A stretch of 64,000 nt of DNA from a virus (taxonomy: Duplodnaviria > Heunggongvirae > Uroviricota > Caudoviricetes), in IMG/VR virus record IMGVR_UViG_3300045597_000172. One strand, written 5' to 3'. The translations under genes were made by a program, and so were the position numbers. Shown piece after piece: positions 2,471-44,465 of this stretch. The first letter of the stretch is position 1. Every line of letters starts with the position of its first letter. The notes below the pieces were generated by a model that had not been told where the DNA came from, did no database searches, and worked only from the letters and a program-made list of their open reading frames with translations.

Positions 2471-2478
2471 TAAGTTGA

Positions 2479-2499
2479 GGCGCCAACGGCGCCTTTTTT
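2479..2499 (+). terminator. rho-independent terminator, GGCGCC-stem family
   Basis: ggcgcc-aac-ggcgcc followed by tttttt. Confidence 0.6.
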
Positions 2500-2572
2500 G
2501 TAAAATGTTGTCATGTCCCGTACAATATCACGCAAACCAAAAAAATTAATAATTAAAAAAAGGAGAATTTTT

Positions 2573-3880
2573 ATGTCATCTGAAAAAACAATTACATTCA
2601 AGACATTAGAACCATTACTTAAACTTCATATTCAATGCGATCAAGTACCATTCCTTGCTGGTGACCCCGGAATTGGTAAATCAGCAGTTCTAAAGAAACT
2701 TGCAAATAAGTTAGATACTCAAGTATTCGTATTATCAGTCAACCAGTTAGGCACCCGTGAAGACTTAACAGGTGCAAGATCTATTATGGACGAAAATACC
2801 AAAACTTATCGTCAAGTATTCTTTCCACATGCTATTATCCAAGATTGCATTGACTATGCAAATACGCACCCTAAAGAAACACCGTTACTGTTTCTCGATG
2901 AAGTTAATAGAACTAGCACAGATGTTACATCTGCCATCATGGCAATCATTACTGAACGTCGAGTAGGTACTACCGTCTTACCAAGTAACATTAGAATTGT
3001 TGCTGCCGGAAATGATGAAGGTAATATTAACGTCATGGATAACGCATCTAATTCTCGTATGCAAATTTATCACATTGCCCCAGATATTGAATCATTTATG
3101 AATGCACAACCAAATCTTAACTACTATATCAAAATCACATTAAACAAAAATCCAAGATTGCTTGTACAAATTCCAAGCACTACCGATGATCTTGTTGGCG
3201 ATAATGATCCAGATGGAGACGATGATGAAGACGATACAAATTTGGACGATTTGTTTGATGATAACGGAATGAAACAAATCACCGTTCCACGAACATTGAA
3301 CTATTTGAGCGATTTTCTAAACGCTGCTGGTTTCGATGGAAGAAGCATTCCAGCAAACGTTGATGACTTGTATAACCAAATGGAACCAACTGAATCACCA
3401 TTGTTTGCTGCAATTACTGCAACAATTGGCGAAACAGAAACCGCAACAACTTTGTTTGATACAATCGTTACATCAATGAACAACTTAGCTGTTGCACCAA
3501 ATGCAAGTGTTCCATCACTCAACGTTCCAAAGCCAAAGAAAGAAATTGTTGACGCTATGACAAACGATATCGAATCAGACGACGATGTCAATGAAATGTT
3601 TAACGACAACAATTTAACCAGCGATAACTTCGTGGATACATTCTTTACCTTAGTACAACTTGAAAATTACAAAAAGTTAAATTATCGTGATTCAATCAAC
3701 CAATATTACCGTAACTTGACACAGCTAAATCTTGATAATACTGCTCAAATTAAGTTCTCACAAACATTTGCAGAATTATTACGCTACAATTTGGTTCCAA
3801 CACCAATTATCAATAGCATTAAAACAGAATCAGACAGCTTATCAAGTCGATTAGGTGTCTTAATTGACACGTTAAGCTAA
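2573..3880 (+). CDS. MoxR-like AAA+ ATPase with a long acidic/low-complexity C-terminal extension
   Basis: Walker A LAGDPGIGKS, Walker B/sensor LLFLDEVNRTS (the DE[IV]NR signature of MoxR/AAA_5), VAAGN sensor-1 region. ATG at 2573 preferred over track start 2513 because of the aaaaaggagaattttt RBS. Asp-rich tract DNDPDGDDDEDDTNLDDLFDDNG. Confidence 0.6.
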   Translation: MSSEKTITFKTLEPLLKLHIQCDQVPFLAGDPGIGKSAVLKKLANKLDTQVFVLSVNQLGTREDLTGARSIMDENTKTYRQVFFPHAIIQDCIDYANTHPKETPLLFLDEVNRTSTDVTSAIMAIITERRVGTTVLPSNIRIVAAGNDEGNINVMDNASNSRMQIYHIAPDIESFMNAQPNLNYYIKITLNKNPRLLVQIPSTTDDLVGDNDPDGDDDEDDTNLDDLFDDNGMKQITVPRTLNYLSDFLNAAGFDGRSIPANVDDLYNQMEPTESPLFAAITATIGETETATTLFDTIVTSMNNLAVAPNASVPSLNVPKPKKEIVDAMTNDIESDDDVNEMFNDNNLTSDNFVDTFFTLVQLENYKKLNYRDSINQYYRNLTQLNLDNTAQIKFSQTFAELLRYNLVPTPIINSIKTESDSLSSRLGVLIDTLS

Positions 3881-3951
3881 AAGCAAAAGCTGGTGCAAAT
3901 AAGGGTTCGATTCCCTTTTTTGCTATTAAATATTGAAAGGAATAATTGTCT

Positions 3952-4461
3952 ATGTTAATCTCAGAAAATTTGCTTATAACTCTTGAAAAAATTGCAAACA
4001 CAAGTTTGAAATACTCACTTGTAGCATCAGAAACAGAATATACTCGTGAAATCGAAAATTTATTACGTGTAAGACCAATTATTTATTATCGAAGAATCGG
4101 ACGAGTTGCTAGTCAATTTGGATGGGAAGAACCAAAAATTTGGAAAACTTTTGCCCAATCCAAAAAACTATCACTCACTAAAATCAAAACTTTTAAATTA
4201 CTATACGGAATTCATAAAAGTAAAAAATACGGAGTTGGATTTATAATTCCGTATGAAGAATCAATTAATTTACAAGAAATAAACGAAGAATTAACAAAAC
4301 TCTTCAAATCACACATAAAAAAACAAGTTAGAGAACAACCATTCAGATTATATGATGATCAAGAATCAAAAGCATTAGTAATAATCGAACCATATCAAAC
4401 TTCAAAAAAGGAGAATACAAATCATGCCAAAAGTAATCATGCAAAACCAAGCACCATTTGA
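3952..4461 (+). CDS. hypothetical protein between the MoxR-like and vWA genes
   Basis: ORF with gaaagga RBS. Track start 3946 is TTG; ATG at 3952 has better spacing. No motif recognised. Confidence 0.4.
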   Translation: MLISENLLITLEKIANTSLKYSLVASETEYTREIENLLRVRPIIYYRRIGRVASQFGWEEPKIWKTFAQSKKLSLTKIKTFKLLYGIHKSKKYGVGFIIPYEESINLQEINEELTKLFKSHIKKQVREQPFRLYDDQESKALVIIEPYQTSKKENTNHAKSNHAKPSTI

Positions 4462-6130
4462 CTTTAGCGATTATGTTCCAAAATTAACACGTTTTGATAA
4501 CCCACTAGAAGATGAACTTCAAGATGCTTTATTCAAAAATTTACTTGCTAAAATGAAAACCCCTGTCAACAATACCGCACCTATCAAAATCATGGTCGAC
4601 GGTAAAGAATATAAAGATGACGAAATCATCAATGATTTAACAAAAAGTGTTGCAGAAGAAGATGTAAATATTCCACGTGATGAAATCTTATCATTACTAT
4701 TTCATCAATCGTCACGTTACCGTGGTAAACATCCAGAGAATTGGAAACAAATCATTGGCAATTCCATTTTATTAAAAAATAAAGCGCCATTGCCTACTGC
4801 AAGTATGCTTTACACATACAACACAGACATTCAGAACCAAGCAAAAGATTTCCTTATGAACGATACACCTCAAACAAGAACTGAACTTTTAATCGGATTA
4901 ATTGGTAATTTAATTGCCAATACAATTAGCGATCGTTGGTGCTTTATCTTAACTAATAATTCTGATTATGACCGTATTAAAGATGAACTTGATAAAGAAA
5001 TCCAAACCTTTACAACTGATCCAGCAATCCAAGGTTTTAATCGAGATGTCCAAGGCATTGCATTTAGTAAAGACGACTGTTTTACTTCGTGGGTTACCGG
5101 AAATAATGTTTTACCGGGATCACTTAATCGTTTTATTTTAGATACACTTGAAGCATTCAAACCAAGTGGTTTTACTGAAACTCTACCACTTAACATTCAA
5201 GGAATCCTGAATCCAATCGGATTTGCATTCATTAATGTTGAAGCATTAGCAAATAGTGACCAATTAAGTTACCAACACGAACTAAAACAGCTTCAATCAG
5301 TGTCAAATAATTTGAGACGTTTTAAAATCAGTAAGCTTTCAAAAATTAAAAACGCAACAAATTATTCAAGTTCTGCACCTCACTATCAGAAACAATATAC
5401 CAAAACCATGAATGGTATTGGATCAAGAAAGCAACGTGGATTTCATAAAACCTTACCATCAACTAAGTGGCAATTATCCGTGATGAGTAAGCTCATTAAG
5501 AAACGAACATCAAAAATTATTTCTGATACAACATACAAAAGTTTTATCACAAGTTTTATGAGAGCAAATCGACGTCATCCAAATGATCCAAACTTACGTG
5601 GACGACTACAAAAAACAAATTACCGTCCAGATATTCACATTTATTTGGACTCATCTGGTTCGATCTCTGAAAGACAATATCGAACTGCCGTAACATTGTT
5701 AATTTGCATTTCAAAGAAACTAAAAACGAACTTGTACTTTACAAGTTTTTCACATGTCGTATCGCAACCTGTTAAATTAAATACCAAAAACGCATCAGTT
5801 AAACAAATCTATCGTCAAATTCAGTTAGTTCCAAAAGTAACTGGCGGTACTGAATATGAAAATGTTTGGAGAATGATTGACGTTCTTGAGAAACAAAATC
5901 GATATCATCAATTATCTCCACAATTAAACTTTATGATTACGGATTTCGAATACAACATCAGTAGTACATGGAATCCTCAATTAAATAAAGCATCTACACA
6001 AAACACCTATTATGTTCCATTAGCTGCCACACAAGATGAATATAATCGAGTTAAAAGCTACGGCATGGATTTTGCTAACCAGTTAATCGATAAAGGTGAC
6101 ATAACAATTAAATCTCGAATGATTATGTAG
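4424..6130 (+). CDS. von Willebrand factor A (vWA) domain protein, partner of the MoxR-like ATPase
   Basis: MIDAS motif IHIYLDSSGSISERQY (DxSxS) in the C-terminal third. aaaaaggaga RBS. Canonical MoxR-vWA gene pairing. Confidence 0.55.
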   Translation: MPKVIMQNQAPFDFSDYVPKLTRFDNPLEDELQDALFKNLLAKMKTPVNNTAPIKIMVDGKEYKDDEIINDLTKSVAEEDVNIPRDEILSLLFHQSSRYRGKHPENWKQIIGNSILLKNKAPLPTASMLYTYNTDIQNQAKDFLMNDTPQTRTELLIGLIGNLIANTISDRWCFILTNNSDYDRIKDELDKEIQTFTTDPAIQGFNRDVQGIAFSKDDCFTSWVTGNNVLPGSLNRFILDTLEAFKPSGFTETLPLNIQGILNPIGFAFINVEALANSDQLSYQHELKQLQSVSNNLRRFKISKLSKIKNATNYSSSAPHYQKQYTKTMNGIGSRKQRGFHKTLPSTKWQLSVMSKLIKKRTSKIISDTTYKSFITSFMRANRRHPNDPNLRGRLQKTNYRPDIHIYLDSSGSISERQYRTAVTLLICISKKLKTNLYFTSFSHVVSQPVKLNTKNASVKQIYRQIQLVPKVTGGTEYENVWRMIDVLEKQNRYHQLSPQLNFMITDFEYNISSTWNPQLNKASTQNTYYVPLAATQDEYNRVKSYGMDFANQLIDKGDITIKSRMIM

Positions 6131-6144
6131 AAAGGAGTCAAATT

Positions 6145-8007
6145 ATGACTTATCACAATGTTCCAACCGGAACTACTAACAACAATAGTAATAGTAACAA
6201 CAACAATAACAACTCTGTACCACCCGTATTACCTATCAGTGCAAAAAAGGCGCTCAAAGATGACGTCCCCGATTTACTAATTGATTACGAAAAATTAGCA
6301 AAGAAACATAAAATCCAAAAAGTAATGTTTAGAGACAACATTATCAATCGATTATTGACAATCCTAACTACTAAAAATCATCCAAACGCATTACTTGTAG
6401 GTGAAGCCGGAACTGGTAAAACAGCTATTGTTAAAGACTTAGCTGTTCGATTATACGAAGCTGATCCAATCGTCACCGCTATGTTAGGGGATAAAACAAA
6501 AATTTACGAATTGCCATTAACAAACCTAGTAGCTGGCTCTGGCATCATGGGCACTATGGAAGCAAAACTAGATAATGTTGTGAAATTCATTAGCAATCCA
6601 AAAAACAACGCTATTCTATATCTTGACGAAATTCACCAATTAACAACTACTCAAAGTTTAAAAGAAGTCGCAGAAATTCTCAAACCTGCATTAGCAAGCG
6701 GAGAACTTCACGTGATCGGGTCTACTACTACTCAAGAACTAAAATTCTGGCGTAGCAATCCGGCATTAACAAGACGCTTTTCGAATTTAATTGTAGATGA
6801 GTTATCAAACGAACAAACGGAACAAATTCTTGCAAAACTGATTCCGGTTTTACAAAAATCTAACATCATGGTTCAAGTTGATCCTACAATTTTAAGTAGA
6901 GTCGTCAAAACGGGTAACCAATATGCTAAAACTCTGGATACACATCGTCCAGATTCAGCAATTACCGTATTGGATCAAGCAATGGCAATGTCAAGATTAC
7001 AATCAATTACGTTAAAACAATCTGGCGTAACAATTCCTGCCAAAGTAACCGAACAATTAATTGATCATGCCGGAAAACAGCTTGTCAATAATAACAACGA
7101 TGATTCATTAACATCGCAAACATTGTCAGATTTACAAACACAATTTGACGAAAATATTATCGGACAAGACAAAGCCAAATCAAAAATTCTTAAATCAATT
7201 CGATCAATGATTCTTGAATTAACGCCACAAAAACGTCCATATAGCTTTCTATTTGCCGGCTTAACCGGAACAGGTAAAACCGAAATCGCAAAACAATTAG
7301 CAAAGGTTTTATTCGGTGCAAAAGATCGATTCATATATCTCAATATGACTGAATACGCAACTGATGCATCATTAACTACGTTAATTGGATCATCACGTGG
7401 CTACGTTGGTTATGATTCCGCACAACCTTTACCACTTGATACCTTAAAATCAAATCCATTTCAAATTGTTTTACTAGATGAATTTGAAAAAGCTAGTACC
7501 GATGTCAAAAGATTGTTCATGCAAGCCTTGGACGAAGGTGAAATAAGTTACGCAGACGGATCACATGTCGATTTCTCACACGCAATCGTTATTGGAACAA
7601 CGAATTCTGGAACAGATAAATTATCAGAATCTCACGTTGGTTTCGGTAATAAAGAATCAATCACCGAATCTGACTTAACAAACGCATTATTAACAAGTTT
7701 TCCACCGGAATTGTTAAATCGATTCGAATATATCGTTGCCTTCGATAAAATCACAAAAGAACAATATGCTGAAATTGTAACAATCAAGTACAACCAATTA
7801 AGACAAGAAATTAAAACATCACATCCCGAACTGGATATCATTCCAACCGTTGCCGAACCCGATATGCCCTTTATTCAAAGTATCACTGATAAAAGCTACG
7901 ATGCGCTAAAGAACGCACGTCCAGCAGAAAGATCAGTTAGACATTTTGTAGAAGATCAACTTTTAAACGCCAATCAAGGAACTATCGACTTAACGGCAAT
8001 TGTTTAG
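6145..8007 (+). CDS. Clp/Hsp100-family double-AAA+ unfoldase (ClpA/ClpC-like, compact, no M-domain) with a putative ClpP-docking loop
   Basis: D1 Walker A LLVGEAGTGKTAIV, Walker B ILYLDEIHQL, IGSTTTQE...ALTRRF. D2 Walker A FLFAGLTGTGKTEIAKQL, Walker B IVLLDEFEKA, IGTTNSG. HVGFG tripeptide loop at the position of the ClpA IGL / ClpX IGF loop. Poly-Asn tract near the N-terminus. Confidence 0.75.
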   Translation: MTYHNVPTGTTNNNSNSNNNNNNSVPPVLPISAKKALKDDVPDLLIDYEKLAKKHKIQKVMFRDNIINRLLTILTTKNHPNALLVGEAGTGKTAIVKDLAVRLYEADPIVTAMLGDKTKIYELPLTNLVAGSGIMGTMEAKLDNVVKFISNPKNNAILYLDEIHQLTTTQSLKEVAEILKPALASGELHVIGSTTTQELKFWRSNPALTRRFSNLIVDELSNEQTEQILAKLIPVLQKSNIMVQVDPTILSRVVKTGNQYAKTLDTHRPDSAITVLDQAMAMSRLQSITLKQSGVTIPAKVTEQLIDHAGKQLVNNNNDDSLTSQTLSDLQTQFDENIIGQDKAKSKILKSIRSMILELTPQKRPYSFLFAGLTGTGKTEIAKQLAKVLFGAKDRFIYLNMTEYATDASLTTLIGSSRGYVGYDSAQPLPLDTLKSNPFQIVLLDEFEKASTDVKRLFMQALDEGEISYADGSHVDFSHAIVIGTTNSGTDKLSESHVGFGNKESITESDLTNALLTSFPPELLNRFEYIVAFDKITKEQYAEIVTIKYNQLRQEIKTSHPELDIIPTVAEPDMPFIQSITDKSYDALKNARPAERSVRHFVEDQLLNANQGTIDLTAIV

Positions 8008-8039: not shown

Positions 8040-11000
8040 ATGCCTGTTGACTTAACAAAAATTAACACTACTAAGCAACAAAAACCAAAATTTAACACAT
8101 CGTATTTTCATCATTCCCTTACGGGAATGGGTGGAAAAGTCGGATTGTTCAATAATACCAATACTGTTATTGCAGACAATTTCAAAAAGCATCTATTCCA
8201 ATCCCAACAAGCACTTCCAATTGTTGATCCAAAATTCAACAAATCTGATAAAGCCTTAATGTATGCTAGTGACCTAACTCCGACTGTGCCGGGAGGATAT
8301 CAAGACGATAAGCACCACACTTTTGATTTGTCGCCCCTCTCTATTTTGGCTCAAACTGAACAAAAATGCCGTACCGTTAGATTTACAAAACTGCCAGCAT
8401 TTCTTGCAGAATTGAAAATGCATGAACTTGCAAAAAACAAAGATGATGAAACGCTTAGCGTTGGACTAATCGCAAATCGTGTTGAATATTATCATTACCG
8501 CAACATGAAAGATACTGCCCTAACTGCCGAATCATTTATTTTACATTCAAGTCTTGTATTAAAAGTTACAAAACCAAATGCTAAACGAACAACTGTTCAC
8601 ATGCTCAGAAATGATAATTCTGAGTTAGTAACTTTACAGAAAAGCAGCAAAAGTAATCAAATCATTGTACTAAACGACATTGATCTGTACGTTGGTAAAG
8701 AAAATGGACAAGCATTACATCCAACACTATTCATGGCATTATCGCAAATTAAAAAGAATTACAATTTACAAGATGCTAAAGCAAAAAACACAAGTTATCC
8801 AAATGATCTATACGCTACGGCATCCGCAATCATGGATTATTTAGAGACCATTAACATGGCAGATTCAATCCGTGAGCAAGCACGAATTAATCATGAAAGT
8901 CTTCTTGATGATTTAGCAACATTGGTTAAGTTCATGAACAACACACCAGAACAATTTAACAACCATAGAAAAATCATCATTAACGCATATCATCTAATTA
9001 AACTGGAAGAGTTAAACTATAAGGAAAATGACTATCAAAGATTTTACAATGAAATCAAGTATCAAACGTTAAAGCATCATTGCAAAAATCCACTATATCG
9101 TTACAAACCATATAATTTTAACAAACTGATTTCCGTAAATACTAGACTTTCATTAACCCACCAAATTAGTAACCTGAAAAATAACTCTGCTGTTTATAAA
9201 TTCTCACCATCTGTTACAAAATTACAAACAACCGAGAAATATTCACCTGAACAATCTGCCATAATTCATACCACTGAACCATATAGTGTCGGAATTGCTG
9301 GAGCAGGATCAGGGAAATCACATACGTTACTAGGCCGATTAGAATTTCTACAACAAAACGGAATTGATTTCAAAAAGGTTTTAGTAACATCCTTTACCAA
9401 TACGGCTGCTCAAAATATTATTAACCGATTCAAAAGTGGAATTAACTCGTTAACTAACGCAAATTTGTTTCATAAAATCTATCAAGCAAATTTCCAACAT
9501 GAATTAACAAACGATCTAACCATCGCAAATTTGTTAAAGATGATTTCAGATTCAGCACCAATTATGAAATCAAATAGTACAATTAACGATACTCGTTTAA
9601 AGTTAGCAAAATTAATTGAAAGCAGTGTTTCAACTGGATTCCAGAAAGTTGATCCTCGAAAAATAACTGAATCATTAATTGCCTTAATCAACGAAAACTT
9701 AGATGACGTTATCACTATTTTAGATGCCGTTGGACAAACAAGTTTATTACTAGAACCAATCGTAATTAACGCATTAATGCAAAATCAAGCAACCATTAAA
9801 TATCCTAAAGAATTAAACAATCTTGACTTCATTATTACAGATGAATCACAAGATACATCCGCCTTTGAATATGTATTGTTATTGCAACTTGCACAAATCA
9901 ATGACGCACAGTTGATGATTATCGGTGATGCAAACCAAACATTGTATGAATTTCGTAATGCAAACCCTGATTTCCTGAATGCTCTTGAACGTTCAGATGT
10001 TTTCAAAACGTACACAATGTCAACAAATTATCGTTCAAAACAAAGTGTATTAACATTAGCAAATCAGTTTTTAGATGTTCTAAAAACAAATTCGACTGCA
10101 AAATTACAATTACATGCAAATAAATACAGTAATTTAGATTTAGCACAATTCAAAGACGACATTGAACTGGAAAACTTGATTTTACAACCTGAATCAAAAA
10201 AGGCAGAAGATTTCAAGTCTGAATTAATTAGAACTTTAGTTGATCGTCAAGACTTTCGTGATTGGGTTATTGACCAATACCATAACAAAAATCAAATTGC
10301 TATCATGGCATATCGTAATAATGACACCCAATCTATTGGCGAAGCCGTTCAAAGAGTCATTGAAAACACCCTTGGACAAACTGTAACTGTCGGATATACA
10401 AGACAGCCAACGCCACGTCCAAATACATGGCTTTCTCAAATGTTAAGTGGAACATACGATGCTGATTTCAAAAAGTTTGCAAAGAGTGGACATTTAACAA
10501 CTAAGCATGTAATCAATAGTTTAACTGCTAGACTTCAAGTCATTGCAAATAAACGTCATTACAACGCTGGCGTAATTAACCAATGGGCTTTAGACCAAGT
10601 AAATGAACTAACAAAACGACAAATTTTCAAAATCAACCTTAATGATCTCAACGCCAAACGTATTTCGTTAGGCGCATTTAATGGCTTCATCTCAATGTGG
10701 TTAATTAAAGCTGAAACTAAGAAAAACAACGTAAGTCGACTAATTAACAATCAACAAAACACCGACTGGCAAAATTGTGACATTGTCGTTTCAACAATTC
10801 ATTCAGCAAAAGGACTTGAGTTTGATTCTGTAATTTGTTACTTTGACGAAACCATGCGTTCAGCAACTACCCAAGAAAATCTTCGATTATTCGGCGTTGC
10901 CTTAACACGTGCAAAAAGTAAAGAACTGATTTTAAACCGTCCAAAATTAGAACGAGTAACCAATGCGATCCCTGTTCCAACAAGCTTTGCATATGAAAAA

Positions 11001-11087
11001 TCAGATATGTTTAAAACACCAATGCGAACTGCATACATGCGTGTAAAACAAGATTTAACACCCGCACCAAAAAAAGTAAATCCATAA
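8040..11087 (+). CDS. UvrD/PcrA-like SF1 helicase with an approximately 400-aa N-terminal extension of unknown function
   Basis: Motif I GIAGAGSGKSHTLLGRL, motif II FIITDESQDTS, motif VI VVSTIHSAKGLEFDSVI, LTRAK near the C-terminus. N-terminal 400 aa have no recognised motif. Confidence 0.7.
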   Translation: MPVDLTKINTTKQQKPKFNTSYFHHSLTGMGGKVGLFNNTNTVIADNFKKHLFQSQQALPIVDPKFNKSDKALMYASDLTPTVPGGYQDDKHHTFDLSPLSILAQTEQKCRTVRFTKLPAFLAELKMHELAKNKDDETLSVGLIANRVEYYHYRNMKDTALTAESFILHSSLVLKVTKPNAKRTTVHMLRNDNSELVTLQKSSKSNQIIVLNDIDLYVGKENGQALHPTLFMALSQIKKNYNLQDAKAKNTSYPNDLYATASAIMDYLETINMADSIREQARINHESLLDDLATLVKFMNNTPEQFNNHRKIIINAYHLIKLEELNYKENDYQRFYNEIKYQTLKHHCKNPLYRYKPYNFNKLISVNTRLSLTHQISNLKNNSAVYKFSPSVTKLQTTEKYSPEQSAIIHTTEPYSVGIAGAGSGKSHTLLGRLEFLQQNGIDFKKVLVTSFTNTAAQNIINRFKSGINSLTNANLFHKIYQANFQHELTNDLTIANLLKMISDSAPIMKSNSTINDTRLKLAKLIESSVSTGFQKVDPRKITESLIALINENLDDVITILDAVGQTSLLLEPIVINALMQNQATIKYPKELNNLDFIITDESQDTSAFEYVLLLQLAQINDAQLMIIGDANQTLYEFRNANPDFLNALERSDVFKTYTMSTNYRSKQSVLTLANQFLDVLKTNSTAKLQLHANKYSNLDLAQFKDDIELENLILQPESKKAEDFKSELIRTLVDRQDFRDWVIDQYHNKNQIAIMAYRNNDTQSIGEAVQRVIENTLGQTVTVGYTRQPTPRPNTWLSQMLSGTYDADFKKFAKSGHLTTKHVINSLTARLQVIANKRHYNAGVINQWALDQVNELTKRQIFKINLNDLNAKRISLGAFNGFISMWLIKAETKKNNVSRLINNQQNTDWQNCDIVVSTIHSAKGLEFDSVICYFDETMRSATTQENLRLFGVALTRAKSKELILNRPKLERVTNAIPVPTSFAYEKSDMFKTPMRTAYMRVKQDLTPAPKKVNP

Positions 11088-11234
11088 AACACAAGCCGTA
11101 AAGGGTACCTTGGCCCTCATGTTGGTTCAAATCCAATTACGGCTATTGCTATTCCAAAAAATATTCGTTATACTGTATCTGTCCAATATTTATATAATTA
11201 TATAAATAATACAGAACACAGGAGGTCAAAAAGA

Positions 11235-27736: not shown

Positions 27737-28012
27737 ATCTCAGTACGAGGCGCAAAGATTGACGCTAAAAACAAAGAAATTTGTTATATCTGATAACCGA
27801 TTGTGAATTGGTTCAACACCAATACAGAAGTTGGAGCTTAGAATCGGTTAACTTATAAAGTTTGAATCCTTATCGTACTATTTCATGCGTGCATTAACTT
27901 GCCAACCATAATTGGTTGCCGTCGCATAGAACTGCACCGACGTCAGTACAGCGTCGTAAAATAAATTAAGCAACACTCCTACAAGGAAATATTGTGCAGG
28001 TATTTCCATAAT

Positions 28013-28084
28013 TGTCCAATAGTTCAGTGGTAGAATATCTGACTGTTAATCAGAGGGTCGTAGGTTCGAATCCTACTTGGACAG
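28013..28084 (+). tRNA. tRNA-Asn (anticodon GTT)
   Basis: Acceptor tgtccaa/ttggaca. D-arm gttc-agtggta-gaat. Anticodon arm tctga-ctGTTaa-tcaga. T-arm gtagg-ttcgaat-cctac. Confidence 0.75.
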
Positions 28085-28303
28085 TAGATGCTACTAAACA
28101 AAGGCATTGCGCTAATTGCGAAAACCAAATAACATTGTTTACTAACGGTGTAACTAAGCTGGGCTAAATGCATCAAAACGATGCATAAATTATGAGATAT
28201 AAATTAAACGCTGGATTGCAACCAGTTGCTCATAATACCAATATTAAAAATGGTACCATTCTTAATATTAGTAGTTAGGTTCGATTCCTAAACGCTGTTA
28301 TTT

Positions 28304-28369
28304 CGTGATTGTAGCTCAAGACAAGAGTCATCGTTGTGACGAGATATTGGTGCAAATCCAATCAATCAC
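28304..28369 (+). ncRNA. degenerate tRNA-like element (66 nt) with T-loop UGCAAAU
   Basis: Acceptor gtgattg/caatcac (7/7). D-arm-like gctc-aagacaa-gagt. T-arm attgg-tgcaaat-ccaat. Anticodon arm truncated. Confidence 0.3.
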
Positions 28370-28405
28370 ATCATAAAATTCAAAATTGGAAAGGAAGATG
28401 TAAAA

Positions 28406-28669
28406 ATGGAATACCGAGTACCCGTTGCATATGGCTCATACGGAATTGTAAAAGTTAATGCTAAAAACAAGCAAGAACTAATCGAAAAATTATCATCTCA
28501 AGAGTTTATTGCTGAAATGCCATTACCTGACAATCCTGAATATCTCGATGACTCATTCGAAATCGATGTAGATGGTTTAGAATTTGAAGAACAACACGAC
28601 AAAAACGGAAACGCTGTCACCCTAGCATTATCTCATAACGAAATTAAAAAAATAAGAAATCCAGAATAA
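28406..28669 (+). CDS. hypothetical protein
   Basis: RBS ggaaaggaagatgtaaaa-ATG. 87 aa. Confidence 0.4.
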   Translation: MEYRVPVAYGSYGIVKVNAKNKQELIEKLSSQEFIAEMPLPDNPEYLDDSFEIDVDGLEFEEQHDKNGNAVTLALSHNEIKKIRNPE

Positions 28670-29138
28670 AACATTGTCCGCAACGACAATCAGCATTCAT
28701 TAAACTACGTGGTGGAGATGGCGTAGAGTAAAACTCACGTCCAAGAAAAAATACAACATGCTTACATAATGTTGTTGTAAAACAGATATTAAACAAAAAA
28801 TAAATTCAAAGGATGTGATGATCGTGCATAGAAGCCGTTTGCTTCACCGTCCGCGCGACGTTATGATTGAAAATATCAATTCATAAAAAAACAATGCTGC
28901 ATATACTATAAAACATAATTGGTGCGTGGGAAGTTGAAATACTTCTATATCGTTAGTTGCTAAAACCGGCTAATGACGAATTAGAATAGGCAAGTTCCGT
29001 TAAATGTACGCCAACCTAGATCTATGTACGTAAAAGCATAATTGATCGCATAGGAAAGACAGCCAATTTAACTTAAAAAGTCAGCACTAGACAAAAAGCC
29101 GTATCGAAGAACGCGTAATGACGTAATCATTACAAAAG

Positions 29139-29166
29139 TTGACAACCAAAGCCAACATGCTAACAT
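29139..29166 (+). promoter_or_regulatory. candidate sigma-A-type promoter upstream of tRNA-Asn (TTGACA-N16-TAACAT)
   Basis: -35 box ttgaca at 29139-29144, 16-nt spacer, -10 box taacat at 29161-29166. tRNA starts at 29184. Confidence 0.3.
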
Positions 29167-29183
29167 AACGTGTGTTAGTTCAT

Positions 29184-29255
29184 TGCTCAGTAGTTCAGTG
29201 GTAGAATAATTGACTGTTAATCAAGAGGTCGTAGGTTCGAATCCTACCTGAGCAG
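29184..29255 (+). tRNA. tRNA-Asn (anticodon GTT), third copy
   Basis: Acceptor tgctcag/ctgagca. D-arm gttc-agtggta-gaat. Anticodon arm attga-ctGTTaa-tcaag (A-G at the stem base). T-arm gtagg-ttcgaat-cctac. Confidence 0.7.
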
Positions 29256-29533
29256 TTTAAAAAACTATGGAAAGCAAACCATTTAAACTCGGTTATTGAT
29301 TACTGTAGGTCAACAATTTTGTACTATATGCATCAAAGACCCACCGTGCAAAATCCAGCACAAACGAGTCTGAGACATCATTTATTCCATTGATATGTTA
29401 GTCCAACTGACAATTCCGGAAACGGACTAAAATCCGTTGTAGATTAGAATCGTTATTGGATGAGATTACGAAACCGGTCCAATGAATAATGTATCAAGAT
29501 GGTAACAAGGAATAAATACATCAAACAGACGGT

Positions 29534-29605
29534 ACATCTGTAAGCTTACTGGTGAACTATTGGTCTCCAAAACCAAAATTGTTGGTTCGAATCCAACCAG
29601 ATGTA
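29534..29605 (+). tRNA. tRNA-Trp (anticodon CCA)
   Basis: Acceptor acatctg/cagatgt. Anticodon arm ttggt-ctCCAaa-accaa. T-arm gttgg-ttcgaat-ccaac. D-arm imperfect but same architecture as the second Trp gene at 44559. Confidence 0.6.
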
Positions 29606-29766
29606 TAAATCAAATGGTTATATCAATCGTTTGATTCTAGTACCAAAGTCAGCAATAGACTATAACAGCCGTAAAAATAGACGCATACTAACGTAATTAC
29701 TGTATAAAAATCAAACGAAGCATAGTAATTTGATGTGTTATTAAGGTGTAGGATAACATTTATTTC

Positions 29767-30092
29767 GGGCTTGTTTTGGATTCGACAGGGCATTAACGCT
29801 TTAATCTCGTCAACCAGTTAAATATAACTGCAAAAGAAAACACTTTAGTTGCTGCCTAGTTTAACCACTAAATAGCAACACCTCAACCCACTGGCAAAGC
29901 CGTGATAACCAGTGGTTTCAAACACGGATAAGTTAATTATGTTCCATTAACATAATTAATCGAAAACTAAAATGGTTAATGAATGTTTGTCATTAGCAAA
30001 ACTCATTATAAAAAAAATAATTAATGACTATGACGTAAGAATGATTACGGTAAGTGATGTCTTGGACGCGGGTTCGATCCCCGCCAAGTCCA
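29767..30092 (+). ncRNA. ssrA: tmRNA (SsrA), about 326 nt, predicted tag (A)AKENTLVAA
   Basis: 5' end GGGCUUGUUUUGGAUUCGACAGGG (tmRNA hallmark GGAUUCGACAGGG). 3' tRNA-like domain gcggg-ttcgatc-cccgc plus acceptor caagtcc pairing with 5' gggcttg, including a G3-U70 wobble (Ala identity element). Conserved UUAAAUAUAACU precedes resume codon GCA at 29830. Frame GCA AAA GAA AAC ACT TTA GTT GCT GCC TAG ends at 29859. Confidence 0.7.
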
Positions 30093-30284
30093 TAAATCAA
30101 AAAAAAATCGTCAAAAATATCTTGACCAAACTTATATGTTAACATATAAGAGTAGTAGGACCGCATACGCGGGATCCTGAGTACAACTTAGTCTAAAGAT
30201 ACCAAGTTGGAATCAAGCAGAGTCAGCTGCTAAGTCAGACAATTTGAACTACTAATTTTACGATATTTATTAATATCGTATTTC

Positions 30285-30363
30285 GGACTCGAAATCAACA
30301 ACCCTAGGAACGTTGATTCCATGAATAGCTGTTAGCCAGATGGTTTGAATCCATCCGAGTCCA
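30285..30363 (+). ncRNA. degenerate tRNA-like element (79 nt)
   Basis: Acceptor ggactcg/cgagtcc (7/7). T-arm gatgg-tttgaat-ccatc. Middle has a tcaac/gttga hairpin with a 12-nt loop but no anticodon arm. Confidence 0.3.
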
Positions 30364-30394
30364 TTGCACCAAATAAAATAAGAAAGCTGGAAAT

Positions 30395-30955
30395 ATGATG
30401 ACCGATAACATTAAAAAGATTCCACAAATTCCATTGTTACACGATATTCCCTTCAATCAAGAAGACAAAGATCTAATCGTTCAACTATCATTACAAGGTG
30501 TAATTGCATCACTCCACAATGACCCAAAATACGGTTTGTTTTTATCAATCAAGAAACCTATTCGCGGCATGTTGTCAGTACAAATTCTCATCGAAAAAGC
30601 AACTCATGGAAATCTCAAAAAAAGTATTCTTGATAGTTGCAAAAATGCACCTGAACAATTATCAAAAATGCGAGATGTGAAATATTTGGATAGTTTAATT
30701 AATAACATCGAAAACTTCCATTTCATTCGCAAATATGACGAACCTTATTTTAAAGAAAACATTCAGCCATTACTAAACAATCACGCTGAGACAGAAAAAA
30801 TAGATAATAAAATTAATCAATACGAATCTGACACTGGCAAAAAAATTGATCTTACCAAACCTGATTTTCAAAAACGTTTAAACGAAATCCGAAAGATACA
30901 ACGACGAAAAATTCATTTTCAATGTAATCTTATTCGCATTGCTAACAGTATCTAA
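30395..30955 (+). CDS. hypothetical protein
   Basis: RBS aagaaagctggaaat-ATG. 186 aa. Confidence 0.45.
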   Translation: MMTDNIKKIPQIPLLHDIPFNQEDKDLIVQLSLQGVIASLHNDPKYGLFLSIKKPIRGMLSVQILIEKATHGNLKKSILDSCKNAPEQLSKMRDVKYLDSLINNIENFHFIRKYDEPYFKENIQPLLNNHAETEKIDNKINQYESDTGKKIDLTKPDFQKRLNEIRKIQRRKIHFQCNLIRIANSI

Positions 30956-30986
30956 AATTAATCACGGTAATCTATTACCGTGTTAC

Positions 30987-31059
30987 GCAGTTTTAGCTCA
31001 GTAGGTAGAGCATCTGTCTTGTAAACAGAAGGTCACAAGTTCGAGCCTTGTAAACTGCA
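30987..31059 (+). tRNA. tRNA-Thr (anticodon TGT)
   Basis: Acceptor gcagttt/aaactgc. D-arm gctc-agtaggta-gagc. Anticodon arm tctgt-ctTGTaa-acaga. T-arm acaag-ttcgagc-cttgt. Confidence 0.75.
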
Positions 31060-31140
31060 TTGCGGTTAATCCGCAATCTAATTGTTTTCTTCAATAGTAA
31101 ATTATTCCTTTTCCGATATGGTAAATCCATATCGTTTTAT

Positions 31141-31227
31141 GGACAGTTGGCCGAGTCTGGTTTATGACGCTGGCTTTGAACACCAGTTGTGAGCAATCAC
31201 ACACAGGTTCGAATCCTGTACTGTCCG
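31141..31227 (+). tRNA. tRNA-Ser (anticodon TGA), class II
   Basis: Acceptor ggacagt/actgtcc. Anticodon arm ctggc-ttTGAac-accag. Long variable arm with tgtga/tcaca stem. T-arm acagg-ttcgaat-cctgt. Confidence 0.6.
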
Positions 31228-31242
31228 TCCAAATATCTTAAA

Positions 31243-31357: not shown

Positions 31358-32812
31358 ATGTCAACATCTTTAATTATCACTGGAGTAATTGCATTTTTAA
31401 TTGTCATTTTAGCCGTAATAATTATTACAGCATACAAGAAAGTCGCACCTAACGAAGTTCTAATAGTCACTGGTGGTTTTTTAGCTGGACCCTATGTTCA
31501 AACAAATCCACAAACACACACCAAAGTTAAAGTTGTGACCGGCGGTGGTACCTTTGTCATCCCCATCGTGCAACAATCACACATCTATTCACTTGACACG
31601 TTTAACATCGATGTCAACGTAAATGAAATTATGACTAAAGATGCAATTCCAGTTGACGCCGCAGCAAACGCCGTATTACGACCTGCTTCTGAACCACAAT
31701 TACTAGCAGTTGCTGCACAAAAAATCTTTGGCTTAACTGAAGAAGAACGCCGTACTCAAATGGAACAAGTTGTCTTAGGCGGTGTTCGTGAAGTCCTTGC
31801 CGGACTAACACCAATGGAAGCTAATAATCGTTCAAACTTTGCTCACGAAATTGTTACTTCAATTAAACCAACATTCGACAATCTGGGACTGGAAATTACC
31901 GCACTTCAAATCACTAAACTAAGTGATACACATGGCTATTTCGAATCCGTATCTAAACCAAAGATTGTTGATGCCGTATCAGTCGCACGTCAACGTACTG
32001 CTGAAGCTGACAAACAAGCAACATTAGTCGAAGCCGCTAACAATCTTGAAGCTCAACAAGGTAAACTTGATGCTGAGAAAAAGATTGCATTAAGTGAAAA
32101 AGACGTCAAAATTGCTAAAGCACAATACCAAAAAGAAATTAACATCAATGATGAAATGGCCGCTCAAGCTGGTGTCATTACCAAAACAGAACAAGATGCC
32201 ATCATCAAAGAAAAACAAATTGCTGTAAACGAAAACGAATTGAAAGCAACTAAAATTGCACAACAAAAAGCAGAATCAGAAGCAAAAACAATTCAAGCAA
32301 ATAATGATGCTGCCATTATCAAAATTAACGCAAATGCTAACGCAGCAGCAATCAAAACTCAAGCTGAAGCCGAATCAGATAAAATTAATAAAATTGGGGT
32401 TGCCAACGCAGCTGCCAGTGCCGCTAAAATTCGTGAAACTGGTAAAGCTCAAGCCGAAGCACAAGAAAAAATTGCAAATGCGTTATCTAAACATGGCGAA
32501 AATGCAATTATCATGGAAATCATTAAGCAATTACCAATCATCAGTCAAGCTTATGCCGAATCAATCTCCAATATTGATAACTTAACTGTCTTTGATGGTG
32601 CAAAAGGCGTTACAAATCAGCTAGATGCCCAAATGATTCAATCAAGTGAACTTATCAAGAAAGCTACCGGTTTTGATCTTTTTGATTATCTTGGCAAACG
32701 AGGAAACGGTAAATCAGACGTTAACCTAAACCTTAACGATAACAGTAAAGAAGCTCTGACCGAAATAACAAAATCAAACAAATCCGAAACAAATACTAGT
32801 TCAAATAAATAA
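31358..32812 (+). CDS. flotillin-like SPFH/band-7 domain membrane protein (FloT/YuaG-like)
   Basis: N-terminal TM helix IITGVIAFLIVILAVIIITAY. SPFH-like core. About 250-aa Ala/Glu/Lys/Gln-rich coiled-coil with EA-type repeats (AEAESDKINKIGVANAAASAAKIRETGKAQAEAQEKIA) typical of flotillins. Confidence 0.6.
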   Translation: MSTSLIITGVIAFLIVILAVIIITAYKKVAPNEVLIVTGGFLAGPYVQTNPQTHTKVKVVTGGGTFVIPIVQQSHIYSLDTFNIDVNVNEIMTKDAIPVDAAANAVLRPASEPQLLAVAAQKIFGLTEEERRTQMEQVVLGGVREVLAGLTPMEANNRSNFAHEIVTSIKPTFDNLGLEITALQITKLSDTHGYFESVSKPKIVDAVSVARQRTAEADKQATLVEAANNLEAQQGKLDAEKKIALSEKDVKIAKAQYQKEININDEMAAQAGVITKTEQDAIIKEKQIAVNENELKATKIAQQKAESEAKTIQANNDAAIIKINANANAAAIKTQAEAESDKINKIGVANAAASAAKIRETGKAQAEAQEKIANALSKHGENAIIMEIIKQLPIISQAYAESISNIDNLTVFDGAKGVTNQLDAQMIQSSELIKKATGFDLFDYLGKRGNGKSDVNLNLNDNSKEALTEITKSNKSETNTSSNK

Positions 32813-33062: not shown

Positions 33063-36000
33063 ATGAATAAAAAAATAATAGCGAAAAAAGTTTCAATTAC
33101 TATTCTAATTACAATCCTTGGATTAACAAACATGTCAGATGTTTTTTTATTAAAAAATAACATTATACACGCAGATCCTACCAATTGGACACAAACTGCA
33201 AACAACGTTAACGCAACAAACAAAAATCTTATAGACAATGCTGTAACAAATTCAAAAAAGACAGAAAATACAAATTTAATTCAGGATCAAACGCAAACAA
33301 TCGATGCAACATCCTCGAATTTAAATGACATTGAAAATCAAGTCAAAAATAGCAACAACAACATGATATCGGAAATAAACAGCGATACCGAAAAACAAAA
33401 AGCTATTAACGAAAAAAATGAACAAATTGAAAAAGACAACAATTCAAAAAAACAATCATATGAAGCAGCATTAACAAATTATAATAACGAATTAGCTGCA
33501 TATAAAAAAAATCTACAAGATCAAGGATTAAATGATGGTATTGATCCTTCCACATTCAATCAACAACTCCAATTTACTCAAGATGACAGAAACAATACAG
33601 AACCAAAAGTGAGTGTTCAATTGTTATCAGGTGCAGTTAATTACAAAAAATTAATAAGTAATGGATACGGAACTAGTAATTTTCCATGGTCAAATTCACA
33701 TGAAGCTGAACAGATATATGCAAAGAATTCAAACGCTAAATCTATTAACGGTGATTTTGCAAAAATCACATGGGATGGTGTATATGGATATTCATATAAT
33801 GGTATACAAATTAAAAAAATTGTAGAAACATTCAGTGACTGGAAATTAGCTGCTACTAAACATGTAAGTGGCCCTCGTGGAATAACCGTGTATCAAAATC
33901 CAAATGAAAATTTTTGGTATTTAAACGGATCCGACACGACAACAAACTATCAATTTTACGATGAAAACGGGAATTTAATAAATTTCGAACCAAATAACGC
34001 ATACGTCGCGGTAGGTAGTTTGGACAGAGCATATTACGCATACGATTTTGGAAGTCACACATACAACACCAATATCGTAGCCAACCAAATCGAAGAAGTT
34101 CAATTATTGTCAGCCGGAACCGGAATACAATTAACAAACAGTACTATTAGCAATCACGATGGCAACAATATGTTTTCTGATAAAGATAATGTACAAATCC
34201 AATATCAAAATGGTGGATTAACAGAATATGGTGCATTTAACGTTACAGGTGGAAATATTAAACTACATTACCACACAAATATGACAAACGAAGCACCAAA
34301 CGCATCAACATTAACTTCATTTGCAACTATATTTCCATTAAGCTCTGCGCCAAAGAAACCAACAAGTCCAACATACACACCAACAGATCCGACAGTGACA
34401 GATATTCATTATCATTACACAAACATAAATTTAAAATTAACAGTCACAACAAATTATCTTCAAAACAATGATTCAAAAAAACAAGAAGATGGCTCAAAAT
34501 TAGCTGACTCTACAACACAATCCGGAGATAGTAACTCAAACTATTCAACTAGTAAAAAAGATTTCACTGGTTGGCATCTAACTTCTACGCCAACAAATGC
34601 ATCCGGAACATTAACAAATTATGACGTGACAGTTAACTATATTTACGACCGTGATCCCGAAACTGTAAAAGTAAAATACGTAGATGAAGAAACCGGAAAT
34701 GATATTAGCAATCCAACAACATTAAATGGATATTACGGATTATCATATACATCATCTCCGAAATCAATTACTGGTTGGACCTTATCTAAAACACCAAATA
34801 ATACATCTGGAACATATTCAAAGAGTAATGCCGATATCATCTATCAATACAAGAGAAATACCGAAACAGTAACCGCAAATTATCTTGCCAATAATGATAT
34901 TAATAAAAATGAATTTGGACAAAAATTAGCGGATTCAGTAACACAAAAAGGTGGTTTCGGAACAAACTACACAACATCTGCAAAAGATATTTTAGGATGG
35001 CATTTACTTGGAATTCCAACCAATCAAAATGGAACCTACCAAGAAAGTAACCCCGACGTCAACTACATTTACGATCGTGATCCTGAAACGGTAACCGTAA
35101 AATATGTAGACACTAAAGGAAACACGTTAGCAAAAAGCAATACCTTAATTGGATACTACGGATTGGATTATCAAACATATCCTGCAAGTATTGATAACTA
35201 CCACCTAACTGCAATTCCTACAAATGCAACCGGTAAATATTCAAATGGTCCAATTACCGTAACTTACATTTATGACGTTGATCCCGACATCAAAGAAGGA
35301 CTTTCTAACGATGCAATAAACAGTAAAAATTACGATACTGCAATTTCTAACACATCACAAAACGTACAATACAATAATGTTTACCACTATGTTGATAAAA
35401 TCACAGTCGGTGGATCCATGAACCTTACCGATCTAAAAATCCAAACAAATCTACCAAGTGATGTTAATCCAATCGTTAACGGTGGCGACATCAATAATCA
35501 AAACATTAAAGTTTATGTTCGTGAAGATGATGGTTCATTAACAAATGTTACAAGTCAAGGAACACTTGCGTATCAAGTAAACAACAAAGATGTAACTAGC
35601 GATAATAACAAAAATGTCGCAATTGATACTGATAAAACAAGAACTCTGACATGGACACCAAAAACACCATCTGCATTCACTGGAAAACAAATCATTACTG
35701 ATATTCCAGTAAATCTTCAACCAGATGCTGCAAAACTAAAAAGTTATAAATCTGACAACGGTATTAATATCAAACACACCACTCAATTAATTGAATCAAA
35801 TGATTTACCAAGTTCTGGTGAAATAAAAACTGATACCACATCACAAAAAACGTATACCAGCAACAATACAACAATTCAATTACCAAACATCTATACGTTA
35901 AAATTTTACAAATCAGAATTTCAAACCAACGATACAATTAATGGAAAAGTTTGGTTGAAACTATATCCAAACCTTGTCGGACAAGAAGATACAGGTAATA

Positions 36001-37797: not shown

Positions 37798-38244
37798 ATG
37801 CTATCCGGAAAACTTTATACACTAGGTTTAGTTATGTTTTCAGTCTTTTGCAGTCTTCTAATTGCAATCTATTCAATCATGGAATTCACACAACAAAGAC
37901 TCCAAGGTTCACTTCAAACCGTTACCGAAGAAGCTATCTATGACGCACGGTACGATAACGCACGAAGCACTAATAAAGTTTTTGTACTAGATAAAACAGT
38001 CTTTGAACAAGACCTGATCCATAGCAATATCAAAAGTATTTCCAACGATTCAAGTTTAAAATTAGAATACATGCACGATGATAGTACCGCGGCAAAATCA
38101 CTAAACTTAACAGATTCCCGCATCCCTATCAAAGCAGTTAGAGTAACCGTAGTTGATGGAACAAACGATCACTTAAACAAAACAATTACTTACATCATCA
38201 ACTCAAATTCAAAAACTAAAGACGATGACTTATCAAATAACTAA
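37798..38244 (+). CDS. N-terminally membrane-anchored protein (148 aa); candidate TadE/F-like pseudopilin
   Basis: N-terminal TM helix LYTLGLVMFSVFCSLLIAIYSIM followed by a soluble domain. First gene of the operon containing the secretion ATPase. Confidence 0.35.
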   Translation: MLSGKLYTLGLVMFSVFCSLLIAIYSIMEFTQQRLQGSLQTVTEEAIYDARYDNARSTNKVFVLDKTVFEQDLIHSNIKSISNDSSLKLEYMHDDSTAAKSLNLTDSRIPIKAVRVTVVDGTNDHLNKTITYIINSNSKTKDDDLSNN

Positions 38245-38260
38245 TAAAAAAGGTGAACTT

Positions 38261-44321: not shown

Positions 44322-44385
44322 TAAAATCAGAAATTGATACTTGCAACATTTACCTCAATCTGATATTATATAACCAAGCAGTTTT

Positions 44386-44459: not shown

Positions 44460-44465
44460 TTTTCT

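Follow-up and report, generated by a model that had tools for sequence, protein, structure and literature searches.

A compact Clp unfoldase gene with a predicted ClpP-docking loop lies in a conserved four-gene module on a probable plasmid-like element

Introduction

Cryo-electron microscopy of the Hsp100/Clp unfoldase ClpE with ClpP (2026) found the VGF motifs of the ClpE P-loops seated in the hydrophobic H-sites of ClpP, and mutation of this motif (602-VGF-604) to GGR abolishes the interaction with ClpP (PMC13125188). The N-domain of ClpE targets misfolded and aggregated proteins, the pore-loop residue of its first AAA+ ring (AAA1) is I194, and ClpE M-domain mutants, as well as constitutively active ClpC, are toxic together with ClpP (PMC13125188). 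Comparative genomics has recorded both ClpA-like genes and MoxR-vWA pairs in jumbo phages, though not joined in one unit and with no experimental work (PMC7824862, PMC6102473). Here we describe a Clp gene at positions 6145..8007 of a stretch of 64,000 nucleotides from IMG/VR record IMGVR_UViG_3300045597_000172; we analysed this whole stretch and call it the window. The product of the gene, which is near certain to be a double-ring AAA+ Hsp100/Clp unfoldase, is a new architectural variant of a well-known machine. Our overall reading, to which we give reasonable but not strong credence, is that it is a ClpP-docking unfoldase that has neither N-domain nor M-domain, is linked to a conserved gene module, and is borne by a plasmid-like element.

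Giant plasmid-like elements have been described in oral Streptococcus. These Inocles are 245-395 kb long with a GC content of about 32%; their genes include those for tRNAs, LPXTG proteins, a sortase, a bifunctional transglycosylase and DNA repair (PMC12340149).

Results

A two-ring Clp protein with neither N-domain nor M-domain

The JGI and Logan gene calls give an identical 620-aa protein, which is carried by a 236,971-bp contig. The features of the gene and its product are as follows.

6145..8007, + strand: compact class-I Hsp100/Clp unfoldase gene, ATG start, 620 aa
6130..6137, + strand: Shine-Dalgarno sequence GAAAGGAG, read directly, overlapping the stop codon of the vWA gene and 7 nt before the Clp ATG
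6145..6258, + strand: disordered N-terminal tail, residues 1-38, with a poly-Asn tract (predicted local distance difference test, pLDDT, < 50), standing in for a Clp_N or zinc N-domain
6535..6561, + strand: AAA1 pore loop GSGIMGTME (translation), with Ile133 in place of the Tyr of KYR
7393..7416, + strand: AAA2 pore loop SRGYVGYD (translation), a canonical GYVG
7636..7644, + strand: V498-G499-F500, the predicted ClpP-docking (P-loop) tripeptide (translation; alignment to ClpE)

The Pfam domains of the Clp protein are AAA (residues 83-216), AAA_lid_9 (221-303) and AAA_2 (366-528). Its top NCBIfam model is that of ClpA (TIGR02639), which covers the whole two-ring core at 351 bits against a cut-off of 993; the ClpB model TIGR03346 scored 322 bits (cut-off 1232), and the NCBIfam ClpB, ClpV, ClpG and ClpK models each scored well under their cut-offs. 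PHROG 4871 ('ATP-dependent protease') matched with E = 8.5e-125. An earlier note, made from the sequence alone, had listed the motifs IGSTTT...RRF, DEFEKA and IGTTN and a poly-Asn tract, all of which we found in the translation, DEFEKA within LLDEFEKA and the tract at residues 11-23.

That note also held that the protein has no middle domain and a minimal N-domain, and its domain anatomy, read directly from the data, bears this out. The two Walker A motifs are 286 residues apart (clade range, 275-302), compared with 281 in Escherichia coli ClpA, 337 in Bacillus subtilis ClpC and 399 in E. coli ClpB; because this spacing is ClpA-like, the protein is without an M-domain. Just 85 residues precede the first Walker A motif, versus ~205-213 in the ClpA, ClpC and ClpB references (213 in ClpA), and the protein is therefore also without Clp_N or a ClpE-type zinc domain. 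Pfam returned no match to Clp_N or UVR in the Clp protein, Cys is absent from residues 1-45, and an alignment of 65 relatives, with identity down to ~40%, has no conserved columns upstream of L45.

In this alignment the Walker A and B motifs, sensor-1, the arginine fingers and sensor-2 of both rings are unvarying. The invariant residues are G86/K92/T93, D161/E162, T194/T195 and R210/R211 in the first ring and G372/K378, D445/E446, T485/N487, R526 and R592 in the second, which makes both rings look competent for catalysis. An AlphaFold2 model built on the 65 relatives has a mean pLDDT of 86 and a predicted template modelling score (pTM) of 0.79, and its best Foldseek match in the PDB is Staphylococcus aureus ClpC in the MecA/ClpC/ClpP complex, followed by Mycobacterium tuberculosis and Streptomyces ClpC1 (ClpP1P2 complexes), ClpA in ClpAP, and ClpB (E about 1e-40 to 1e-35; TM score, 0.70-0.79).

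The protein thus has two complete AAA+ modules, AAA_lid_9 and the protomer fold, which together define class-I Hsp100/Clp proteins, and it falls outside each named type within that class. It scores below the TIGR02639 cut-off and has no Clp_N, both of which mark the ClpA equivalog; it has neither the Clp_N and coiled-coil M-domain of ClpC nor the zinc N-domain and ClpC-like M-domain of ClpE; and it differs from ClpB/Hsp104, which have a long M-domain and no ClpP loop.

Protein databases hold many relatives, mainly metagenomic, of about 600-700 aa and 40-89% identity, a few of them from Bacillaceae assemblies (Salipaludibacillus, Evansella, Virgibacillus and Metabacillus). A scan of one genome per species gave relatives with 36-40% identity in Streptomyces, Arthrobacter, Pseudarthrobacter, Nocardiopsis, Kribbella, Microbacterium, Actinomyces, Parvibacter and Lachnospiraceae, and PLSDB gave plasmids of Gordonia (pGKT2), Rhodococcus fascians and Streptomyces. 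Megablast found no close phage relatives, and tblastn against phages gave nothing above 35% identity. A scan of IMG/VR with the single Clp protein gave no matches; the IMG/VR relatives considered below came from a scan that used the family alignment instead. In a neighbour-joining tree (547 columns, without bootstrap), the clade members cluster on a long branch away from ClpA, ClpB and ClpC, other bacterial Clp proteins and the ClpA-like proteins of IMG/VR jumbo phages. On our reading, the Clp protein is a member of a separate clade that is particular to mobile elements and has ClpE and ClpC as its closest characterised relatives.

A predicted ClpP-docking loop

The Clp ATPases that partner with ClpP (ClpA, ClpC, ClpE and ClpX) are marked by an [LIVM]-G-[FL] tripeptide in a flexible loop of their last AAA+ module, and V498-G499-F500 is such a tripeptide, set within HVGFG (residues 497-501, nt 7633-7647); in the AlphaFold2 model, residues 494-507 around it form a lower-pLDDT loop flanked by well-predicted elements. 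The earlier note had placed VGF at the position of the ClpP loop and proposed an alignment to check it. The closest solved relative by HMMER is Enterococcus faecalis ClpE (PDB 29hb; 279 bits), and in this alignment, where residue 441 of the query pairs with ClpE 546 and the single target gap is at query 494, V498, G499 and F500 fall on ClpE V602, G603 and F604, confirming the register. At this alignment position B. subtilis ClpC has VGF, S. aureus ClpC has AGF and E. coli ClpA has IGL; no such tripeptide is present there in E. coli ClpB.

G499 and F500 are unchanged in all 65 aligned relatives, and each of the 33 clade members that we tabulated, one per distinct locus, has x-G-F or, in one case (locus L036), IGL. 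Because the tripeptide occupies the same column in ClpE, ClpC and ClpA and G499 and F500 are invariant, the register of the VGF loop is correct and the motif under selection. We give a good probability to the prediction that the Clp protein docks ClpP.

The pore loops also resemble those of ClpE. Ile133 (in G-I-M-G) corresponds to ClpE I194, and in most clade members the AAA1 pore position is occupied by I, V, L or M, not by the KYR tyrosine, while AAA2 retains GY(V/I)G; in the second ring G419 and G422 are invariant and Y420 is conserved at >= 90% across the 65 relatives.

A four-gene module in two phyla

The Clp gene follows a MoxR-vWA pair and precedes a helicase gene. The genes and signals of this region are as follows.

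2513..3880, + strand: MoxR-like AAA+ ATPase (AAA_5), first gene of the module (Pfam AAA_5, E = 1e-13; PHROG 1297 'ATPase', E = 6e-32)
3946..4461, + strand: small open reading frame (ORF), 171 aa, between MoxR and vWA, its 3' end overlapping the vWA start; membership in the module uncertain
4424..6130, + strand: vWA partner, 568 aa, with a C-terminal vWA domain (~400-568) of the metal ion-dependent adhesion site (MIDAS) type and ~300 N-terminal residues without an assigned fold
8040..11087, + strand: UvrD-like superfamily 1 (SF1) helicase, 1015 aa, last gene of the module (Pfam UvrD-helicase, E = 5e-23, and UvrD_C; PHROG 1967)
2477..2495, + strand: terminator-like hairpin just 5' of the module, with an 8 bp stem, 6 GC pairs and a T-run (consensus scan; suggestive only)
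11102..11117, + strand: weak terminator-like hairpin just 3' of the helicase gene (consensus scan; suggestive only)

The gaps between vWA and Clp (14 nt) and between Clp and helicase (32 nt) are short, and the GAAAGGAG octamer precedes the helicase ATG at 8040 as it does the Clp ATG. Counts from the terminator and promoter scans were no higher than the shuffled expectation. The true start of the MoxR gene is possibly downstream (the Logan call is 435 aa), and the C-terminal half of its product is acidic. It adjoins a vWA gene with an intact MIDAS, the arrangement that defines a MoxR-vWA pair. The vWA family is small and discrete: a profile search covering 1.84 billion representative proteins gave 318 members at E <= 1e-3, of which 225 reached E <= 1e-30; nearly every member is full-length (~540-610 aa), and hardly any has a Pfam annotation. 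A metallopeptidase in the vWA protein, considered by comparison with the jumbo-phage pairs (PMC7824862), was rejected, as the 568 aa contain no HExxH and gave no peptidase match in Pfam. In the helicase, the UvrD core (residues 400-965) follows a ~380-aa extension without a family assignment. The 171-aa ORF gave no family match and no tblastn homolog in the other loci, several of which hold an unrelated small ORF at its position.

To compare neighbourhoods, we used tblastn with the neighbouring proteins of the window against every locus fetched. The first set, from metagenome assemblies, one genome per species and plasmid records, comprised 40 assessable loci with Clp proteins at least 36% identical to the query (L044, truncated at a contig edge, was left out). 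MoxR and vWA upstream and the UvrD-like helicase downstream, with order and strand kept, were found at 35 of these 40 loci and at 33/33 IMG/VR loci at the same identity (68/73 in both sets), and at none of the loci where Clp is at most 34% identical (0/54 in the first set and 0/46 in IMG/VR, 0/100 in total); these counts contain some near-duplicate contigs, and the distinct contexts cover two phyla with differing flanks. The synteny spans Bacillota and Actinomycetota, with Gordonia pGKT2 and a Streptomyces plasmid among the module loci.

The module is flanked by a ParM-like actin and an EndoNS nuclease in the group of loci to which the window belongs, by YdjM and uracil-DNA glycosylase (UDG) in other module loci, and elsewhere by MobL relaxase, HU and a bifunctional penicillin-binding protein; in pGKT2 the flanks are Lsr2, a DEAD-box helicase and a methyltransferase. 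YdjM, UDG and EndoNS recur by the module in distant relatives (L005, L008 and IMG/VR loci), which suggests a wider conserved backbone.

The proposal that the Clp gene forms a module with the MoxR-vWA pair thus holds in two phyla, with the UvrD-like helicase as a further member. The description of the unfoldase as adaptor-less is doubtful, since its conserved neighbours are obvious candidates for substrate delivery. We consider it fairly likely, from this conserved gene order, that the Clp protein is functionally coupled to its module neighbours. We found nothing relevant in the literature on a MoxR-vWA-Clp-UvrD module, and this gene context appears not to have been described before.

Conserved genes of this kind could instead be conflict or defence cargo, in which MoxR-vWA would act as an NTP-dependent sensor, the helicase would detect foreign DNA, and Clp-ClpP would be the proteolytic effector. 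Conflict systems built around MoxR-vWA are on record, the MoxR protein (below threshold) and, weakly, the Clp protein match the bpMoxR model of Pfam, and PADLOC gave domain-level matches to the candidate defence ATPases PDC-M37B and DolB and to GajB-type UvrD helicases; the toxicity of unregulated Clp-ClpP (PMC13125188) would suit an effector. The PADLOC matches are generic, however, with none for the vWA protein or the whole module. Moreover, the position and order of the module are constant across two phyla, in every clade member outside four Clostridia elements, as one would sooner expect of genes for core maintenance or transfer than of variable cargo, and the module is flanked by replication and partition genes. 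We therefore regard defence as improbable and prefer a ClpP-docking unfoldase that works with its module neighbours.

Relatives linked to a ClpP gene

The five exceptions to the module among loci with at least 36% identity are all from Clostridia. Four of them, on conjugative elements, carry a trio of genes for ClpP, a TraG/VirD4-type coupling protein and the compact Clp, at the following positions.

L033, 7135-11701: ClpP, coupling protein and Clp
L034, 7738-11866: ClpP, coupling protein and Clp
L035, 5854-11707: ClpP, coupling protein and Clp
L037, 1336-5786: ClpP, coupling protein and Clp

The ClpPs of these trios have an intact Ser-His-Asp triad and are 30-39% identical to E. coli or B. 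subtilis ClpP. The fifth exception, L030, has neither the module nor the ClpP trio. A further locus, L036, from a Lachnospiraceae metagenome-assembled genome (MAG), bridges the two arrangements, its gene order being SNF2 helicase, ClpP, MoxR, vWA, Clp (with the IGL loop) and UvrD, and in the neighbour-joining tree the ClpP-linked members nest inside the module-linked clade. No coupling protein was found in the window or in the module loci, and our literature search found nothing relevant on the ClpP/coupling protein/Clp trio.

A tblastn search of the window with E. coli and B. subtilis ClpP revealed no ClpP gene; the lone match (E = 0.44), inside the VirB11-like ATPase, was rejected. Since most members have no ClpP gene in cis, their partner is assumed to be the ClpP of the host. 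Element-borne ClpP beside the Clp ATPase is, on comparative grounds, the strongest evidence for ClpP partnership of the clade, and the partnership that the earlier note had suggested is thereby backed by dedicated ClpPs adjoining relatives on Clostridia conjugative elements. That a protease gene is linked to one for a coupling protein hints at a function in conjugative transfer.

The Clp protein might alternatively be a ClpP-independent remodelling chaperone that acts on DNA-bound, replication or transfer proteins, with VGF ancestral or occasionally used. ClpA activates P1 RepA, and ClpX disassembles MuA; ClpA bound to RepA-GFP (green fluorescent protein) is among the PDB fold matches of our model. 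The scarcity of ClpP in cis would fit such a chaperone, as would a DNA-handling context that includes the UvrD-like helicase, EndoNS nuclease and ParM-like actin and, in relatives, the coupling protein. Against this, G499 and F500 stay invariant down to ~40% identity even though they sit in a flexible loop, where drift would otherwise be expected; five loci (L033-L037) link a clade member to a ClpP gene whose triad is intact; and ClpB-type chaperones are without the VGF loop. On this evidence a purely ClpP-independent chaperone is unlikely, and we continue with a ClpP-docking unfoldase.

The carrier is most likely plasmid-like

The window represents 64 of the 237 kb (27%) of the contig and contains 52 ORFs of at least 120 aa. 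The 49 that lie on the + strand were compared with PHROGs, and for most of these we ran Pfam as well. Apart from the module, the features of the window are as follows.

824-2038, + strand: ParM/Alp7A-like actin (MreB-like_C; PHROG 691 'partition protein'), two genes upstream of the module
19086-22463: LPXTG-anchored surface protein, 1125 aa, coinciding with a local rise of GC content to 0.42
22661-23284: RadC
22540-31231 and 44385-44632: tRNA array, 18-19 genes
29767-30095, + strand: transfer-messenger RNA (tmRNA; Rfam RF00023, 105.9 bits; ARAGORN tag AKENTLVAA)
31358-32812: SPFH/Band-7 protein
33063-37334: adhesin, 1423 aa, with four MucBP domains
38225-39691, + strand: T2SSE/VirB11-type secretion ATPase
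49186-49827: RNase H
54970-55647: UDG
56429-57646: RtcB RNA ligase
59235-60509: clamp loader

YdjM is also encoded in the window. With 49/52 ORFs on the + strand and a cumulative GC skew that drops almost monotonically, to -3.68 over 64 kb, the organisation is strongly unidirectional. The closest relative group (L003) has kept the ParM-like actin, at 59% identity. Two ORFs of ~280 aa without reliable annotation (39691-40515 and 40533-41387) follow the VirB11-type ATPase gene, and the three could be part of a pilus or transfer apparatus. Within the tRNA array, ARAGORN made one odd call ('tRNA-???', with a 2-nt anticodon) at 22540-22611, and a tRNA at 25973-26058 was called by Rfam and not by ARAGORN.

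The gene had been called phage-encoded, which two kinds of evidence fail to support. First, none of the 49 scanned ORFs gave a confident match to capsid, portal, terminase or tail families, the sole structural-category match being a weak one to a tape-measure family (E = 3.4e-4) on the LPXTG-anchored protein. Second, both the cargo and the relatives are plasmid-like. The 33 module-bearing contigs from IMG/VR (L096-L124, L147, L161, L173 and L174) are 67-230 kb long. The flanks of eight of these relatives hold YdjM (five loci), PemK toxins, MgsA, sortase and TraX, together with CWB2 cell-wall-binding, LysM and capsule-synthesis genes, and no virion families are among those listed for them. The 'viral' label that IMG/VR gives these module-bearing contigs may thus be a misclassification of plasmid-like elements. 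L104, one of the 33, agrees in size and coordinates with an Actinomyces MAG contig (L021).

These observations do not sit easily with a further explanation, in which an adaptor-less unfoldase from a jumbo phage would redirect the ClpP of the host during infection, possibly against proteins tagged (-VAA) by the tmRNA of the phage itself. The window does encode a tmRNA and 18-19 tRNAs, nearly all of its genes are on one strand, related contigs are in IMG/VR, and jumbo phages carry ClpA-like genes and MoxR-vWA pairs (PMC7824862, PMC6102473). However, no virion or packaging family was matched with confidence by the scanned ORFs, the tape-measure match being weak; the ClpA-like proteins of IMG/VR jumbo phages lie outside the clade and are without the module; clade members reside on bona fide plasmids and also beside relaxase or coupling proteins; and the tmRNA, 22 kb from the clp gene, is without any tie to the module. 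This scenario as a whole is thus very improbable, and we infer that the carrier of the clp gene is most likely a giant plasmid-like extrachromosomal element rather than a phage. Within the 64 kb of the 237-kb contig we found no InoC marker (Replic_Relax, PF13814), VirB4 or VirD4. The MucBP and LPXTG proteins and a 46%-identical homolog in a Lactobacillus equicursoris MAG are weak pointers to the host, which is probably a Gram-positive bacterium of the Lactobacillales.

Discussion

In the mechanism that we propose, the N-domain, which serves substrate selection, and the M-domain, which serves regulation, have been lost, leaving a bare threading motor. The hexamer would dock through its VGF loops in hydrophobic pockets of the ClpP barrel, supplied by the host in the case of the element in the window and encoded by the element itself in some relatives, and would feed unfolded substrates into it. 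The clp gene would be co-transcribed with the genes for MoxR, the MIDAS-vWA protein and the UvrD-like helicase. Since the motor is without a recognition domain, substrate choice is probably delegated to partners; delivery and restraint would be provided in trans, the MoxR and vWA proteins being the most plausible sources, and the helicase could set a DNA-associated context of action.

A more specific version of this mechanism, which we regard as speculative and rather unlikely as it stands, has all four proteins working as a single, hitherto unrecognised machine of large plasmids and plasmid-like elements in Gram-positive bacteria, whose task would be the clearance of protein from DNA. In this version the helicase, together with the MIDAS-vWA protein as a receptor, would locate a protein that is bound or covalently joined to DNA, for example a relaxase, a stalled complex, a silencer of the nucleoid or a nuclease of host defence, and the Clp protein, free of N- and M-domains, would extract it and pass it to ClpP. 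Such a machine would be a bacterial counterpart of the eukaryotic Cdc48/p97 pathways, in which a protease and a helicase remove DNA-attached proteins, and the Clostridia variant with ClpP and a coupling protein would tie the same motor to conjugative transfer.

Several observations weigh against a ClpP-docking unfoldase coupled to its module on a plasmid-like element. A P-loop motif is no guarantee of partnership, as ClpE failed to cooperate with E. coli ClpP in vitro (PMC13125188), and the tripeptide is TGF in three actinobacterial members and MGF in two others, one actinobacterial and one from Clostridia. There is no ClpP gene in the window, nor within 10 kb of any module locus except L036. 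Conserved gene order is linkage, not physical interaction. Finally, IMG/VR labels the related contigs viral, and 27% of the 237-kb contig is visible in the window, so that a phage or phage-plasmid keeps some probability even though the evidence leans towards a plasmid-like element.

The significance of this architecture lies in control. ClpC and ClpE are restrained, and supplied with substrates, by their N- and M-domains, and removal of that control makes Clp-ClpP toxic. With both domains gone and the ClpP-docking loop retained, members of the clade must be controlled and targeted by other means, and the invariably linked MoxR, vWA and helicase proteins are clear candidates. This offers a testable route to a new mode of targeting ClpP proteolysis, as well as a possible function for a backbone module of Inocle-like elements and actinobacterial plasmids, whose genes are mostly unannotated. 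Together, the Clp clade and the small, specific vWA family provide a simple genomic marker for such elements, and they carry a warning that some module-bearing 'viral' contigs in IMG/VR may be plasmids.

Relation to described systems

The Clp protein shares with E. faecalis ClpE, to which it is ~32-34% identical, two AAA+ rings, the VGF P-loop, an aliphatic AAA1 pore residue and the AAA2 GYVG. ClpE, in contrast, has a zinc N-domain and a coiled-coil M-domain. Because it has no M-domain, the Clp protein cannot form the tetrahedral storage assemblies that are open to ClpE. Their genetic settings differ as well, clpE being chromosomal, monocistronic and heat-induced, whereas the gene described here is in a mobile-element operon. 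ClpC and ClpC1 are its top structural matches and have a homologous (V/A/L)GF P-loop; the Clp_N and M-domain of ClpC provide a resting state and bind adaptors (MecA, McsB), and ClpC-type control cannot apply where both domains are absent. E. coli ClpA, as in ClpAP, is likewise without an M-domain and has IGL in the VGF column, but it has Clp_N and the KYR tyrosine in AAA1, both missing here, and it groups with ordinary Clp proteins in the tree, outside the clade. Since Clp_N is absent, so is the ClpS docking site.

Among element-encoded class-I Clp proteins, the ClpA-like proteins of jumbo phages (Atu_ph07 gp292 and Rak2-like phages) belong to the same PHROG, 4871, but are ~30% identical, lie outside the clade, and have MoxR-vWA-UvrD neighbours at 0/46 loci. 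RavA-ViaA, NorQ-NorD and CbbQ-CbbO are also MoxR-vWA pairs; the pair described here is instead invariably joined to Clp and an SF1 helicase, and its vWA partner differs from those of known pairs in having a large N-terminal domain without assignment and no HExxH. Judged by the published description of Inocles, the contig resembles them in its large size (237 kb), low GC content (34%), tRNAs, LPXTG proteins and DNA-repair genes; among its relatives, a bifunctional transglycosylase adjoins the module in L010 and sortase occurs in the IMG/VR flanks.

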